From positions 7,025-71,024 of the forward strand of contig JARRMY010000001.1 in the NCBI GenBank assembly GCA_037385505.1: a stretch of 64,000 nucleotides of DNA. The letters are read 5' to 3'. The notes beneath the pieces are model-generated. The model ran no database searches. It was given only the letters and a program-made list of their open reading frames with translations, and was not told the DNA's origin. Source of the DNA: Gammaproteobacteria bacterium (GTDB lineage Bacteria; Pseudomonadota; Gammaproteobacteria; Chromatiales; Chromatiaceae). Positions 12,791-18,330 of this stretch are shown in pieces. Each line of letters starts with the position of its first letter. Positions within the stretch are counted from its first letter, which is position 1. The translations under genes and the position numbers were made by a program.

Positions 12791-13168
12791 CTATTCCAGC
12801 AGTTCCCGCATCTGCGCCTCGCCGGCCGGCTGCTGCAGCACGGCGTGGACAGGGAAGAGTTCCCTGAGCTTCTCCACATACGGCATCTCCTGCTTCGTCG
12901 CCAGGAGGATCACCCTGGCGTGCGGTGCGTATTTCGGCAGCGAAGCGAGCATGACGTCGAGGTTACTGAGGTTTACGCCGGCGTAGTTGTTGCCGTAACC
13001 GTAGAAGAACTCGGCGACGATGTAGTCGGGCGCGCGCTTCTTGAGCTGGCTGATGGCCTTGCGCATGCTTTCCACACGCACCTGTTCGAAGCCGAGACTC
13101 CTGTACAGCCCGCCGAAATTCGGATGCGTCGGTGACTCGATGATCGAGAGCAGCAGTCTGTCAGCCAT
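12791..13168 (-). CDS. Stand-alone receiver-fold-like protein (pseudo-receiver lacking the acid pocket)
   Basis: 125 aa. By-eye alignment to CheY gives beta1 LLLSIIES, beta3 DYIVAEFF, beta4 VILLATKQ and beta5 HAVLQQP. Lies 9 nt downstream of the coiled-coil gene. Confidence 0.45.
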   Translation of the reverse strand: MADRLLLSIIESPTHPNFGGLYRSLGFEQVRVESMRKAISQLKKRAPDYIVAEFFYGYGNNYAGVNLSNLDVMLASLPKYAPHARVILLATKQEMPYVEKLRELFPVHAVLQQPAGEAQMRELLE

Positions 13169-13177
13169 GTCGCGGAA

Positions 13178-14629
13178 TCAGGGGCACTCGTCCTGGCGGA
13201 AGTAGTAGTCGTACCTGTGCAGTCTCTGCGTCAGGCTCCAGGCCTTGCTGTGCGACAGGTTCTCGCCCTGCGGGAACACCACCTTGACGTAGAGATCGCT
13301 GCAGTGATCGCGCGAGGATTCCGCCAGCAGTGACTCTGCATCCTCGACGGAGAGCCAGCGAAAGGCGCTGTCCTCGGGGCGTTTCGTCAGGAAACCGTCC
13401 GCGCCATCCTGGCGCGTGTAGCGCATCTCGACAATGTACTTGCCCTGGTTCGTGCGCGCCGGCTTGAAGAGCTTGTCGTACTTCTGTTTCAGGTCGTCAT
13501 ACTCGGTCTCGAGTTCTGTCAGGTTCTGCTGCGAACTCGTGAAGCGCTGGCGGACCTCCTCGATCTCCTGCTGCCGGCTGGCGTAGTCCTGTTGCAGTGT
13601 CTCCAGTCTGGAGGTCGCCTCGGAGAGTTCGGCCTCCTTCCCGGACAGACTGCCTTGCAGCTTGCTGATCGATGCCGTCAGGGTTTCGAGCTGGTTCCTG
13701 AGTCGCTCGGTCTCGCGCTTGAGTTGCGAGCGTTCATCGCCGAGGGCGCCGATCGTCTCCTGCTGTTCCGCGAGGGCGGCATCCTTCTGCTGCGCAACGG
13801 CCCGCGCCTCGGTGAGCAGGTCGTTCGTGGTGGCGATCTGCTCGCGCAGGTTTGCGGCAAGCAGGTCCGATTTCTGCTGTTGCTCCTCGAGGTTGCTGAT
13901 CCGGATGTCGCGTTTCTGCAGCTCGTCCGCGAGCTGGCGATTGTCGCTTTCGAGCTGTTGCCTGCTCTGCTGCATGGCCTCGAGCTGGCTGCGGTATTGC
14001 GCGTTGCTGACGGTCATGCGTTCGAGTTGCGTGCGGGTGGCCTGGAGTTCATTCGTCGTCCGGTCGAGGTCGTCCCGGGTCGCCTCGAGCCTGCCACGGC
14101 TCGCTTCGAGTTGCTGGTCGACCTGCGCCTTCTGCTGCTGCAGCCTGTCGAGCCTGGTTGCGAGTTCATCGCTCCTCGTCGCCTGCTGCTGCAATTGCGC
14201 GGTGGCATTGGCGAGTTCCGCGTTGGTGCTGTCGAGCCGCTCCTGCAGGTTGTCGCGGTTCAGGATCAGCCCGCTCTTCTCGGTCTCGAGGGCCGTGATC
14301 GCCTGTTGCTGGCTTTCGGAGCGCGCGATGAGTTCATCGACGCTGTTCTGCAAGGTCGCGACGATGGCGCGGGTATCGGCGAGCTGTTTTTCGAGCGCCT
14401 CCTTGGCCTTGCCGACCTCGAGGGCCTCGGCGGTCGCCTGGCGCTCCGCCTCGAGTGTGAGCTGCAACCTGTTGACGAGTTCCGTGTTCTTCAGCAGCAG
14501 GATGATCATCGCGAGCAGGAAGATCATGACGATCACGGTCATGATATCCGTGAAGGAGGGCCAGAAACTCTCGTTGTGGTCGTCTCCCTCGCGGTTGAGT
14601 CGCAGGTCGACGAAGCCGCCGTCACTCAT
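13178..14629 (-). CDS. TolR/ExbD/MotB-like Asp-bearing membrane anchor fused to a long coiled coil and a small C-terminal domain
   Basis: 483 aa. N-terminal WPSFTDIMTVIVMIFLLAMIILLL, then about 330 aa of Q/E/L/R-rich heptad-like sequence, then about 100 aa containing the only two Cys residues. The start overlaps the upstream gene's stop by 8 nt. Confidence 0.6.
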   Translation of the reverse strand: MSDGGFVDLRLNREGDDHNESFWPSFTDIMTVIVMIFLLAMIILLLKNTELVNRLQLTLEAERQATAEALEVGKAKEALEKQLADTRAIVATLQNSVDELIARSESQQQAITALETEKSGLILNRDNLQERLDSTNAELANATAQLQQQATRSDELATRLDRLQQQKAQVDQQLEASRGRLEATRDDLDRTTNELQATRTQLERMTVSNAQYRSQLEAMQQSRQQLESDNRQLADELQKRDIRISNLEEQQQKSDLLAANLREQIATTNDLLTEARAVAQQKDAALAEQQETIGALGDERSQLKRETERLRNQLETLTASISKLQGSLSGKEAELSEATSRLETLQQDYASRQQEIEEVRQRFTSSQQNLTELETEYDDLKQKYDKLFKPARTNQGKYIVEMRYTRQDGADGFLTKRPEDSAFRWLSVEDAESLLAESSRDHCSDLYVKVVFPQGENLSHSKAWSLTQRLHRYDYYFRQDECP

Positions 14630-15557
14630 CTTTTTGCGATCCGAGCCTGAAACCGTCGCGCAGGATCTCCTTGACCTCGCTGAGGTCCCGGGGCATGGCT
14701 TCGGTCTGTTTCTTGAAGCTGACGGCCGCCTGCGCCATCGCCTCTTCCATGGACATGAACTGGTTGTGCGAGGCTTCCATCTTCCTGACGAGCTGCTGCA
14801 GCATGCGCAGCAGGCCCGTGAACTCGTAGATAACGTTGTCGTTCGTGACCTGGAACTTGGGTGCCAGGTACGCCGTGGTGGTCTGTTCGATGCCGCTCAT
14901 GAGATTCGTCTGCACGTTCGTCAGCTTCAGGTAGAAATAGCCAAAGTAGAGATAGCAGGCGATGGCCGTCATGGTCGTCGACAGCGCCGTCGACATGCCG
15001 TGGATGACCATGCCCATGCCGCCGGACTCGATGGAGTTCTCGAGCATGTCGGAGGCGCCGAGCAGGGCGATCGAGAGCGAGATGATCGTGCCGAAGACAC
15101 CGAGCAGGATCAGGATGTTGTTGATGAAGCGCGGCAGGTTCACGCGCGTGCTCTCCTGCGCCAGCAGCGCGGAGGCGAGGGCGCCGTGGTTGATGGGCGT
15201 GCGGCTCTCGTAGAGTCGCTGCATGGTAATGTAGCGACGGCTGATCATGCTGCTGGCCGGCACCTCGTGCAGGGGGTTCTGCGGCTCCTCCTGCATGTTG
15301 CGGATGAAACGGCCGAGCGCGCGCTCCTCGCGCGCGTAGCCGATCAGCGACGCCATGATCCGCAAGACGCCGAGCAGGAAGAGAATGACGATTGCGCTGT
15401 TGATGATGATACCGATCGCGGAGAGCGAGTGGTTCAGGTAGATCTCCTGAATATTGCCGAACTGCCATAAAATCAACGCGATTGCGATAGCGCCGAGCAG
15501 CAGCATCTGAATGAGCACCGAGCTGCTGTAACGGCGGCGATACTGAATGATGTCCAA
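14622..15557 (-). CDS. MotA/TolQ/ExbB-family proton-channel-like protein (4 TM)
   Basis: TM3-TM4 segment FINNILILLGVFGTIISLSIALLG...GMSTALSTTMTAIACYLYFGYF. Start is uncertain. TTG at 15557 has GGAGAG 7 nt upstream; the alternatives are ATG at 15599 (longest ORF) and ATG at 15506 (MLLLGAIAIALILW, MotA-like N-terminus). Confidence 0.6.
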   Translation of the reverse strand: MDIIQYRRRYSSSVLIQMLLLGAIAIALILWQFGNIQEIYLNHSLSAIGIIINSAIVILFLLGVLRIMASLIGYAREERALGRFIRNMQEEPQNPLHEVPASSMISRRYITMQRLYESRTPINHGALASALLAQESTRVNLPRFINNILILLGVFGTIISLSIALLGASDMLENSIESGGMGMVIHGMSTALSTTMTAIACYLYFGYFYLKLTNVQTNLMSGIEQTTTAYLAPKFQVTNDNVIYEFTGLLRMLQQLVRKMEASHNQFMSMEEAMAQAAVSFKKQTEAMPRDLSEVKEILRDGFRLGSQKDE

Positions 15558-15605
15558 ACCTGAACTCTCCGGTCGTAAATTCTGCGGAAATAGTATCATA
15601 GAAGC

Positions 15606-16847
15606 ATGCAGCCGATTCCAGGTCACGACATCAACGAAACGCGTACGCATCTGCTCGACTTCCTCGCCGCCGCGATCGCGGCCGTGGTTCCCGAAAGCGG
15701 CGTCAGGGAACGTCTCGAGAGAGAGAAAAGCGCGGCCCCGGGCTTTGCCGTCGCGGCCATTGGCAAGGCCGCCGGCATCATGATGCAAGGCGCGCTCGAG
15801 GCGCTCGGCGATGGCGTGTCAGATACACTCGTCATCACTGCGCCGGCCTACGCGGGCTCTGTGCCCGAAGGCGTCCGCTTCGTGGCCGGCAATCATCCGG
15901 TGCCCGATGCCTCGAGTCTCGCCGCGGGAGCGGCGTTGCTCGATTTCCTGGCAGCGCAGCCGCCGGAAATCGAGCTCGTTTTCCTGATCTCCGGCGGTGC
16001 CTCGGCGATGGTCGAGGCGCTCGAGCCGCATGTCACGCCGGATCAGCTGCAGCAGGCGACAGAGTGGATGCTCGCCAACGGGCTGGATATCCGGCAGACC
16101 AACCTCGTGCGCAAGTGTCTCTCGGCAATCAAGGGAGGCAAGCTGCTGCGCCATTTCGACAACGCAGCGCTGGTGTTGCTGGTCTCGGACGTCCCCGGTG
16201 ACGACCCTGCCGATATCGGGTCCGGACTCTTGTCGCCCGATCCGCGCATTTCGGAGGTGCAGTCGCTCCAGCTGCCGGCGTGGCTGCAGGATGTCGTCAG
16301 GGTCCCGGAAATCCCTGCCGGGCGCGACAATGTCCGGATCGAGATCATCGCCTCGAATGGCATCGCCCGGGAGGCGGCCGCGCAAGCGGCCAGGGAAGCG
16401 GGTTTTCCTGTCGAGGTTCACGCGGACTTCGTCTGCGGCGATACCGGCGAGGTTGCGCGCGAGATCGTGCGCTACCTGCTCGATGAGGCGCCGCCCGGCA
16501 TGCATGTGTGGGGCGGCGAGACCAGCGTCAGGCTGCCGCAGAATCCCGGTACGGGCGGCCGCAACCAGCAGCTCGCCCTGCAGGTCGCGCACCTCATCGC
16601 CGGAAGCGACAACTGCTGTTTCCTGTCGGCCGGAACGGATGGCATCGACGGCCTTTCAGAGGATGCCGGCGCCATCGTCGACGGAGGCACCATCGAGCGC
16701 GGCGAGAGCGAGGGGCTGCATGTCGAGGATGCGCTGGCGCGCGCCGATGCCAATCCTTTCCTCGCCGCCAGCGGCGACCTCATTCATCTCGGCGCGACCG
16801 GCACCAACGTCATGGATATCCTGCTTGCCTGGAAGAGCGACGCATGA
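15606..16847 (+). CDS. Glycerate 2-kinase / hydroxypyruvate reductase family protein (DUF4147 + MOFRL)
   Basis: 413 aa with AVAAIGKAAGIMMQGA near the N-terminus and GGETSVRLP..GTGGRNQQLAL in the C-terminal MOFRL-like part. Confidence 0.75.
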   Translation: MQPIPGHDINETRTHLLDFLAAAIAAVVPESGVRERLEREKSAAPGFAVAAIGKAAGIMMQGALEALGDGVSDTLVITAPAYAGSVPEGVRFVAGNHPVPDASSLAAGAALLDFLAAQPPEIELVFLISGGASAMVEALEPHVTPDQLQQATEWMLANGLDIRQTNLVRKCLSAIKGGKLLRHFDNAALVLLVSDVPGDDPADIGSGLLSPDPRISEVQSLQLPAWLQDVVRVPEIPAGRDNVRIEIIASNGIAREAAAQAAREAGFPVEVHADFVCGDTGEVAREIVRYLLDEAPPGMHVWGGETSVRLPQNPGTGGRNQQLALQVAHLIAGSDNCCFLSAGTDGIDGLSEDAGAIVDGGTIERGESEGLHVEDALARADANPFLAASGDLIHLGATGTNVMDILLAWKSDA

Positions 16848-17650
16848 CGGAACTCTTCGAGGCAGCGGCGCATTGCCTGCGCGAGACGCTTCCTGATGCC
16901 AAGTGCGACTGCACCGTGAGACTGTTCCGGCAGTGGCAGGCGGACGAGGTGACCCTCGGGCCGGACGACAAGGCGATCAGGATCGACGAGCCGGGAAGGC
17001 CGCAGCATCCCGAGCTGGTACACCCGCGGGACCTGCCGCGCCGCTCGCTCGGCAGCGACGAAGGCCGGGCCGCGCTGATTCATGCCATCGCGCACATCGA
17101 ATTCAACGCCATCAACCTGGCGCTCGATGCCATTGTGCGTTTTCGCGGCATGCCGCGCGACTACTACGGCGACTGGCTCAGGGTGGCGGCCGAGGAGGCC
17201 AGCCATTTCCGCCTGCTGTCGAGGCGTCTCGCGACACTCGGTTACGCCTACGGCGACTTCAAGGCGCACAACGGCCTCTGGGACATGGCGTTGCGCACGA
17301 GCGGCAGCCTGCTCGACCGCATGGCGCTGGTGCCTCGTCTCATGGAGGCGCGCGGTCTCGACGTGACGCCAGGCATGATCAAGCGCTTCAGGAAACTCGG
17401 CGATACGCAAACGGTCGCTATCCTCGAAATCATCCTCGAGGAGGAGATCGGCCATGTCGAGGCCGGCACGCGCTGGTTCCACTATCTCTGCGAGCGGGAG
17501 GGTCTCGACCCGGAAGAGAGCTATTTCGACAGGCTGCAGCACTATCTCGGCCGCGATCTCCACTGCCCCGTTCACTACGCGGCACGACTGCAGGCCGGCT
17601 TCTCCGAATCCGAACTCGAACGACTCGAGGAACTATGTACAAGACGCTGA
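16844..17650 (+). CDS. DUF455 ferritin-like family protein
   Basis: The ATG at 16844 overlaps the upstream stop (ATGA). HAIAHIEFNAINLALD and EEEIGHVEAG di-iron-like motifs. Confidence 0.65.
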   Translation: MTELFEAAAHCLRETLPDAKCDCTVRLFRQWQADEVTLGPDDKAIRIDEPGRPQHPELVHPRDLPRRSLGSDEGRAALIHAIAHIEFNAINLALDAIVRFRGMPRDYYGDWLRVAAEEASHFRLLSRRLATLGYAYGDFKAHNGLWDMALRTSGSLLDRMALVPRLMEARGLDVTPGMIKRFRKLGDTQTVAILEIILEEEIGHVEAGTRWFHYLCEREGLDPEESYFDRLQHYLGRDLHCPVHYAARLQAGFSESELERLEELCTRR

Positions 17651-18330
17651 TTTACCTACTTCTTATACCAGCCATGATGTTCGCCGCGCCAGCCGCGGCA
17701 GAAACGACCACTACCGATATCCTCGTCTACCGGGTCGAGCCCCGCGACGATTCGCAGGGCTATCTGGCGCGCGTCATGGTGTCTGGCGAGATGCTGCGCA
17801 TGGACGAGATCGGCGACGGGGCAGTGCCGGGCTACACGCTCTACGACCGCGTGGAGCGTTTGATCCTGAGTGTCGATCCGGAGAGCAGGAGCGTCATGCG
17901 GATCGGGCCAGCCACAGAAACGCCTTCCGACCGCGAGGTCGATTTCAGGGTCGAGAGCGAGACGCTCGAGGAGGCGCCAAGGGTCGCCGGCAAAATCCCT
18001 GTCGAATACACTTATGTCGTCAACGGGGAACCCTGCTTCACACTCATCGCCGTCGCTGGCGAAATGGCCGGCGCCATGCAGGCGCTGCGCGAGATGAGCG
18101 CCGCGCTGGCCGAGCGCCACCGGCGCGTCATCGGTTTGGCGAATGATGTCGATGACTGCAAGATGCCGCTCGATGCTTTCGCGCCGGGACAGGAGTACAG
18201 CCGGGGCCTGCTGCTGAGTTTCGTCGGCAGGAGCGAAGTCCGCCAGCTCGTCGAGTTCCAGCGTGGCATCGAGGTCGACGGCGACCTGTTCGAGGAACCG
18301 CCGGGATATCAGAGTCTGCAGATGCCATGA
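17635..18330 (+). CDS. Secreted hypothetical protein
   Basis: The ATG at 17635 gives a signal-peptide-like MYKTLIYLLLIPAMMFAAPAAA. Overlaps the DUF455 gene by 16 nt. The upstream part of the 16903 ORF is discounted. Confidence 0.55.
   Translation: MYKTLIYLLLIPAMMFAAPAAAETTTTDILVYRVEPRDDSQGYLARVMVSGEMLRMDEIGDGAVPGYTLYDRVERLILSVDPESRSVMRIGPATETPSDREVDFRVESETLEEAPRVAGKIPVEYTYVVNGEPCFTLIAVAGEMAGAMQALREMSAALAERHRRVIGLANDVDDCKMPLDAFAPGQEYSRGLLLSFVGRSEVRQLVEFQRGIEVDGDLFEEPPGYQSLQMP

Follow-up and report, generated by a model that had tools for sequence, protein, structure and literature searches.

To our knowledge, the ion-driven 5:2 motors are the only inner-membrane route by which Gram-negative bacteria bring energy to the flagellum, the outer membrane, gliding and phage defence, and every newly recognised branch that we are aware of has shown a new output. 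MotAB, PomAB, ZorAB, ExbBD and TolQR belong to this class. Here we analyse two overlapping genes, gene 1 and gene 2, on the minus strand of a 64,000-nucleotide stretch (the window) of contig JARRMY010000001.1 from a gammaproteobacterium of the Chromatiaceae. With moderate confidence, we read them as encoding both subunits of a so far undescribed branch of these motors, in which the B subunit joins an aspartate-bearing helix to a long coiled coil and a C-terminal domain of a new kind. A preliminary description, made from the letters of the window alone, had proposed a module of three genes. The conserved unit is the pair rather than the trio, and it is related to a known motor class rather than categorically new. 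The features that carry the argument are as follows.

14622..15557, minus strand: gene 1, 311 amino acids (aa), predicted A subunit (open reading frame (ORF), start codon, weak PF01618 match, AlphaFold (AF2) model, Foldseek and topology).
14940..15131, minus strand: third and fourth transmembrane (TM) helices with the loop between them (TM3-loop-TM4), aa 143-206, predicted channel core of gene 1 (alignment A1, conservation and hhalign).
13178..14629, minus strand: gene 2, 483 aa, predicted B subunit (ORF; adjoins gene 1; architecture kept in family representatives).
14492..14566, minus strand: TM (transpore) helix of gene 2, aa 22-46 (alignment A5 and ZorB profile match).
13466..14488, minus strand: coiled-coil stalk of gene 2, aa 48-388, 341 residues (no proline, heptad periodicity and matches to coiled-coil families).
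13181..13465, minus strand: C-terminal globular domain of gene 2, aa 389-483 (alignments A2 and A4, AF2 model and Foldseek).

Comparison with described motors

By sequence the pair is closest to ZorAB, and by the topology of its A subunit it is closest to MotA. ZorAB (PDB: 8qyd, 8vvi, 8vvn) provides the best sequence match for the gene 2 helix, with the Asp residues aligned. Gene 1 has ZorA among its structural matches, the polar filter has a spacing of 37 aa in both proteins (T157-T194 in gene 1, Thr147-Ser184 in ZorA), and both A subunits run on into a helical cytoplasmic tail. However, ZorA has three TM helices and a pentameric tail of ~70 nm (~500 aa), whereas gene 1 has four TM helices and a tail of ~105 aa. 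ZorB ends in a peptidoglycan-binding domain, whereas gene 2 has no wall-binding domain, and the long coiled coil resides on the B subunit, unlike the long A tail of Zorya. Zorya systems also carry ZorC/ZorD, ZorE or ZorF/ZorG alongside. None of these occur near the pair, which lies in core-genome synteny. Lacking a long A tail and ZorC, ZorD and ZorE, the pair is not Zorya.

It is also very unlikely that the pair is a Zorya-like anti-phage sensor, in which a core of the ZorAB type would sense damage to the envelope and pass a signal to effectors whose genes lie elsewhere. Such a sensor would be in line with the kinship of the gene 2 helix to ZorB chains, its closest sequence relatives, with the short helical C-terminal tail of gene 1 and with matches to the PADLOC models ZorB1 (5e-7, gene 2) and ZorA1 (9e-4, gene 1), but the latter are restricted to the TM regions. 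The tail is about a fifth the length of that of ZorA, a wall-binding domain and the Zor partners are missing, and the neighbours are housekeeping genes in conserved synteny. Relatives of the pair were found in none of 72,556 plasmid or 50,697 phage records, and a mobile or defence context was rejected on this result.

MotAB and PomAB share with the pair an A subunit with 2+2 TM helices and the N-terminus inside (N-in), a B helix whose essential Asp is flanked as in W..(F/Y)(A/T)D(F/I)M, and the gene order A then B with overlap. They differ in that the pair has no OmpA-like domain, recognisable plug or flagellar context, and in that the cytoplasmic domain of gene 1 is far smaller. We conclude from the missing OmpA-like domain and flagellar context that the pair is not MotAB. 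An auxiliary or alternative flagellar stator is highly improbable as well. The MotA/PomA-like topology of gene 1, the alignment of the gene 2 helix to MotB and the flagellar genes found within 8 kb in one relative (L002) would suit a stator, but gene 2 cannot be seen to carry an OmpA-like wall-binding domain, the ~72-aa cytoplasmic loop of gene 1 has no match to MotA, and flagellar genes are absent from the window and from the conserved neighbourhood.

ExbB and TolQ have three TM helices. They head the list of structural matches for gene 1, with which the motifs of TolQ TM2 and TM3 align in register. In contrast to both, gene 1 has four TM helices; no TolA was found near the pair and no ExbD/TolR periplasmic fold was detected. 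The conserved neighbourhood holds no Tol/Ton partner gene, where TolB, Pal and TonB themselves were not used as queries. Without a TolA- or TonB-type partner, the pair is not a Tol or Ton system. A tblastn search of the window with Escherichia coli MotA/B, TolQ/R/A, ExbB/D and CheY/A/W/B gave no match at E<=0.01, in keeping with the earlier remark that flagellar and Tol genes are absent.

GldLM and PorLM are functional analogues, as 5:2 motors in which the inner dimer is a long periplasmic shaft toward the outer membrane. GldM has been described as such a periplasmic shaft (PMC9389320). It consists of four globular domains with a total length of ~18 nm, is not a coiled coil and has no sequence relationship with gene 2. 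GldLM occurs in Bacteroidota, where it works with type IX secretion and the gliding machinery. The fusion of an Asp helix to another output domain is known from pairs of a TolQ-like protein with a TPH-vWA protein (PMC12204202). Gene 2 also resembles PRK09039, an uncharacterised ‘peptidoglycan-binding protein’ in which a MotB-type helix precedes a periplasmic part of non-canonical type (E=4e-9 over gene 2 aa 13-185; 36.8 bits against a cut-off of 305). The C-terminal domain of gene 2 is neither OmpA-like nor a vWA domain. Literature searches returned no description of the pair in the library covered, and Pfam, NCBIfam and PADLOC gave nothing above their cut-offs, so the earlier statement that no described system matches still stands.

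The gene 1 and gene 2 proteins

Gene 1 encodes a protein with four TM helices in a 2+2 arrangement and N-in orientation, according to hydropathy and charge distribution (lysine plus arginine counts per loop of 3, 0, 9, 0 and 12). The preliminary description had the 2+2 arrangement right, but the loop between TM2 and TM3, given there as about 85 aa, is closer to 72 aa. The protein scores 17.3-17.5 bits (E=0.004) against the Pfam model MotA_ExbB (PF01618), which has a gathering threshold of 22.9 bits. This weak match recurs in 23 of 25 relatives (E<0.1, best E=6e-4). All of them stay under the threshold. PF01618 is also on record as a weak match for one distant homologue, and one relative carries the NCBI name MotA/TolQ/ExbB proton channel family protein.

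The structure of gene 1 was predicted with AF2 from an alignment with the 25 relatives (predicted local distance difference test (pLDDT) 76.9). In a Foldseek search of the PDB, ~45 of the top 50 hits of this monomer model were chains of ExbB, TolQ, ZorA, PomA and MotA, with a best E-value of 1.5e-3, probabilities up to 1.0 and template modelling scores by target of 0.40-0.56. The model reproduces the fold of the solved A subunits, namely the TM hairpin or hairpins, the cytoplasmic helices and the last two, pore-lining TM helices. We regard this structural evidence as decisive: judged by its predicted fold, gene 1 is a divergent protein of the MotA/TolQ/ExbB/ZorA superfamily.

TM3 and TM4, in the predicted channel core, are ~90% conserved across the family and contain the invariant motifs G153-V-F-G-T157 and G187-M-S-T-A-L-S-T-T195. 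The Pfam match and the PADLOC ZorA match of gene 1 both fall here. The TM3-TM4 peptide quoted in the preliminary description is present in the translation. T157, S189, T190, S193, T194 and T195 are invariant in alignment A1. An hhalign comparison with E. coli TolQ (E=0.003, probability 10%) places GVFGT on GLFGT and ALSTT on ALIAT. The ~105-aa cytoplasmic tail is helical and ends in an invariant L..GFRL (alignment A1; aa 299-304, window 14625-14660) at the tip of the cytoplasmic helix. This terminus is a candidate docking site.

Gene 2 has a conserved cytoplasmic N-terminal peptide, a single TM helix with Asp28 (codon at 14546-14548), a long coiled coil and a C-terminal domain, in this order. 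A profile of the first ~75 residues matches ZorB chains (8vvn_B, 5.1e-7; 8vvi_A, 2.6e-5; 8qyd_F, 3.2e-4), and D28 falls on the ZorB Asp. In hhalign comparisons D28 likewise falls on MotB D32 and TolR D23. The NCBIfam model ZorB1 matches the N-terminal part at 8e-7, far under its curated cut-off. W23, P24, F26, D28, V32 and F37 are invariant in alignment A5, where F6, L9 and R10 of the cytoplasmic peptide are conserved too, and the WPSFTD28IMTV string quoted earlier is present in the translation. Among 150 family representatives, the motif departs from this pattern by a change of D to N in one (P0311) and of T27 to A in several, and is otherwise kept. Gene 2 therefore has what characterises a B subunit: just one TM helix, placed at the N-terminus and bearing an invariant Asp, and a position beside the gene for an A subunit. 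The original pairing of a MotA/ExbB-type channel with an Asp-bearing partner is borne out by the fold search, the sub-threshold Pfam match, the ZorB match and the adjacency of the two genes in 81 of 82 loci.

The stalk of gene 2 is free of proline, shows a 3.5-residue periodicity and matches coiled-coil families only. It would measure ~50 nm if fully extended. When length is counted from the end of the TM helix to the P-A-R motif that opens the C-terminal domain, stalks in 79 loci have 173, 180, 187, 194, 201, 250, 292, 376, 390, 397, 404 or 418 residues, plus two exceptions. The length is congruent to 5 modulo 7 in 77 of the 79, and the stalk in the window has 341 residues. Among 107 representatives that differ from each other by >50%, the range is 103-408 residues, and 89 follow the same rule. 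A further ten deviate by +4, as in a classical stutter. The probability that the distinct lengths are stepped by heptads by chance is ~3e-11. Across the family, stalks span 103-418 residues or ~15 to 62 nm, with a median of ~28 nm. Since the length varies freely, yet almost always by whole heptads, we infer one continuous coiled coil. Tandem repeats in the DNA were considered as a source of the long coil and none were found.

The coiled coil leads into a globular domain of ~95 aa that opens with the invariant P-A-R and closes with D-Y-Y. The preliminary description had recognised the long coiled coil but had not foreseen a folded domain at its end. In the AF2 model of this domain (pLDDT 85, predicted template modelling score (pTM) 0.75), three beta strands are followed by a helix, another strand and then two helices. 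An exhaustive search of representatives recovered the domain in 311 clusters (50% identity), without exception at the C-terminus of proteins of 270-550 aa. The N-terminal Asp helix motif is present in 110 of 150 listed proteins with the domain; the 40 without it appear, for the most part, to be fragments that lack their N-terminus.

Pfam, the PDB profile search and hhalign gave no significant match to this domain, and Foldseek returned weak similarity to RNase-H-like proteins and uS11 only (E>=0.04). Two candidate identities were considered. First, an OmpA-like wall binder was rejected, with no Pfam or NCBIfam match and no OmpA-like chain among the top 50 Foldseek hits. Second, an ExbD/TolR fold, considered for the pattern of strands and helices, is unsupported by Pfam, the PDB profile search, hhalign and Foldseek. 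The Pfam ExbD model (PF02472) matched weakly in one of 26 sequences (E=0.19), the hhalign comparisons with TolR (E=0.41) and ExbD (E=0.68) were non-significant, with both placing helix-strand-helix in the same register, and the top 50 Foldseek hits contained no ExbD/TolR chain. We take this to be a domain of a new kind.

Two cysteines of the domain, C443 (13301-13303) and C482 (13184-13186), co-vary: both occur in the clade of the window and both are absent everywhere else. Their co-variation suggests a disulfide, and a clade-specific pair of this type would fit an oxidising, periplasmic location.

Several observations weigh against a motor. The gene 1 sequence scores under every curated threshold (Pfam, NCBIfam and PADLOC), and its family profile, searched against the sequences of the PDB, found no A subunit and only coiled-coil noise on the C-terminal helix. 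With single E. coli sequences, hhalign gave no match for MotA and ExbB and just the match for TolQ described above, and the E-values of the Foldseek search are modest even at their best. In Pfam, the PDB profile search and Foldseek, the C-terminal domain has no recognisable binding function. The range of stalk lengths is not what a simple ruler across a periplasm of constant width would give. Finally, no conserved partner gene adjoins the pair in 80 loci.

These points bear on the possibility that the pair is not a motor at all, with gene 2 as a structural spacer or tether in the periplasm and gene 1 as its membrane chaperone or anchor, free of ion-coupled movement. The high divergence of the A subunit, the lack of an output partner beside the pair and a stalk that, in most members, is about as long as the periplasm is wide would all suit a tether. 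We nevertheless consider it unlikely. Alignment A5 shows no variation at the Asp of the B helix, TM3 and TM4 with their Thr/Ser residues are strongly conserved, and such residues matter only for ion coupling, which speaks against a tether.

Conservation of the pair and the position of gene 3

In a scan of a collection of species genomes, relatives of gene 1 were encoded in at least 584 stretches. Among the best 80 of these, the sources are Chromatiales, Sedimenticolaceae, Candidatus Thiodiazotropha, tubeworm and lucinid symbionts, and Thiolapillus. In 81 of 82 loci, gene 1 is immediately followed by the N-terminus of gene 2, and in 79 the C-terminal domain is there as well; the loci that miss either part are contig ends. 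Upstream, divergent genes for DUF455, glycerate kinase, LpxH and a peptidyl-prolyl isomerase (PPIase) are syntenic in 43-58 of 80 loci. There is no universal gene downstream of the pair in these 80 loci. We conclude that the pair belongs to the core genome of free-living and symbiotic sulfur-oxidising gammaproteobacteria (Thiodiazotropha, Sedimenticola, tubeworm symbionts and Chromatiales).

Genes for Slp outer-membrane lipoproteins (PF03843), one or two per locus, lie behind gene 2 on the same strand in 33 of 80 loci. These loci are from Thiodiazotropha and relatives (for example L001, 10039-11108), and Slp is absent from the window. The arrangement could be a hint of an outer-membrane partner, or just clade synteny.

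One pair at 67% identity (L009; JAIVTC010000131.1, 292-2845) is in a metagenome-assembled genome (MAG) labelled ‘Candidatus Bathyarchaeota archaeon’. The contig is probably mis-binned.

The remaining features of the locus are the third gene and two elements at the start of gene 1.

12791..13168, minus strand: gene 3, 125 aa (ORF; 2317 relatives; adjoins gene 2 in 7 of 82 loci).
15565..15570, minus strand: Shine-Dalgarno-like GGAGAG, 7 nt upstream of the gene 1 TTG (read from the sequence).
14622-15788, minus strand: maximal ORF of gene 1 (ORF call).

Gene 3 appears to encode a small soluble alpha/beta protein, as judged from its sequence. Here it is probably co-transcribed with the pair, from which it is separated by a gap of 9 nt (13169-13177). 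Its family is large (2317 clusters), highly conserved and unnamed, shares an invariant AEFFYGYGNNYAGVN.SNLDV motif and is matched by no model of Pfam or NCBIfam. The preliminary description had seen a receiver fold that lacks the acid pocket. The fold found no backing: the response regulator model Response_reg (PF00072) matched one of 36 relatives (E=0.06), and an hhalign comparison with CheY, uninformative as it used a single sequence, gave a probability of 0.6%. At the pocket positions, gene 3 has by eye E11-S12, E53 and a Q or H before P114. Thus, neither the profile match nor the acid pocket of a receiver (DD, phospho-Asp, Thr/Ser and Lys) is present in gene 3, and no CheY-like ORF was found in the window or in loci L001-L085.

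Gene 3 could be imagined as the third part of a unit, a pseudo-receiver that regulates the cytoplasmic face of the motor or is driven by it. The short gap suggests co-transcription, and gene 3 follows gene 2 at 6-20 nt in seven of eight informative loci of the closest clade; locus L093 has the same local synteny. The clade with gene 3 also has the longest stalks and the cysteine pair, two automatic source names, and only these, call gene 3 homologues response-regulator-like, and the alternation of beta and alpha elements would allow a flavodoxin-like fold. However, the gene is missing beside the pair in 75 of 82 loci. The seven loci that have it are all in the closest clade (gene 1 >=64% identical), and L009, within this clade, lacks it. 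Homologues of gene 3 at 60-66% identity lie in four unrelated neighbourhoods, and the family occurs in at least five different contexts overall. Together with the lack of a significant receiver match, this makes a three-gene unit decidedly unlikely, and the trio proposed at first is not conserved as such. We conclude that gene 3 is a clade-specific neighbour and not a motor component.

The layout of the locus agrees with what had been reported before. The ORF list has three co-directional ORFs on the minus strand (gene 3, gene 2 and gene 1), and genes 1 and 2 overlap by 8 nt, with the gene 2 ATG at 14629-14627 and the gene 1 TGA at 14624-14622. The start of gene 1 had been left between 15506, 15557 and 15599. 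The TTG at 15557 is preceded by GGAGAG, it is the residue at which the N-termini of homologues begin, and an identical 311-aa NCBI protein from a gammaproteobacterial MAG starts there too. This start is retained and the other two are dismissed.

A divergent glycerate-kinase-type gene (DUF4147+MOFRL) begins at 15606. As its start codon is 48 bp from that of gene 1, both promoters must sit within the adjoining coding sequence, where a simple sigma-70 scan found no promoter. The flanking genes are housekeeping genes and include an amidohydrolase, an IF-2B/MtnA-family isomerase, DUF455 and an inositol monophosphatase family protein; the mtnA and glycerate kinase neighbours named earlier are both among those present. 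Further neighbours in the window are an LpxH-like phosphoesterase, a cyclophilin (PPIase), a thioredoxin and EamA. The divergent glycerate-kinase/DUF455 cluster also contains a conserved 231-aa protein (17635-18330) with no Pfam match and, by eye, a hydrophobic N-terminus resembling a signal peptide. It is syntenic in 34 of 80 loci.

Proposed mechanism and meaning

If genes 1 and 2 form a motor, then in the inner membrane five copies of gene 1 would, by analogy, encircle the N-terminal helices of two gene 2 copies. Protons (or Na+) may pass via Asp28 of gene 2 and the Thr/Ser residues of TM3 and TM4 of gene 1, and this passage would turn pentamer and dimer relative to each other. In the periplasm, the B dimer would form a parallel, continuous coiled-coil stalk with two ~95-aa domains at its tip. 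Its placement in the periplasm is suggested by homology to N-in B subunits and by the co-varying cysteine pair of the end domain.

The pair probably acts on the envelope, and stalk and tip would most likely reach a partner in the cell wall or the outer membrane. By analogy with described motors, there are two options for the motion. The stalk and tip could be an anchor that lets the pentamer turn, like the wall-binding domains of MotB and ZorB, or the stalk could be a shaft that takes motion outward, as proposed for GldM. We speculate on the second option in a more specific form, which is possible but doubtful: a new proton-driven motor family of Gammaproteobacteria whose axle is extended as a rigid, register-preserving shaft that moves rotation or tension from the inner membrane across the periplasm and, via its new tip domain, to a target at the wall or outer membrane. 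It would be a proteobacterial counterpart of GldM, differently built and working without a TonB/TolA-type adaptor.

The pair has escaped the curated cut-offs of Pfam and NCBIfam, and just one relative in our searches had a family name. On the axle subunit it carries a coiled coil whose length is tunable in steps of a heptad, and it offers a simple two-gene system in which to ask if the inner dimer of 5:2 motors can be a shaft. The pair may point to an unknown envelope process in sulfur-oxidising gammaproteobacteria.

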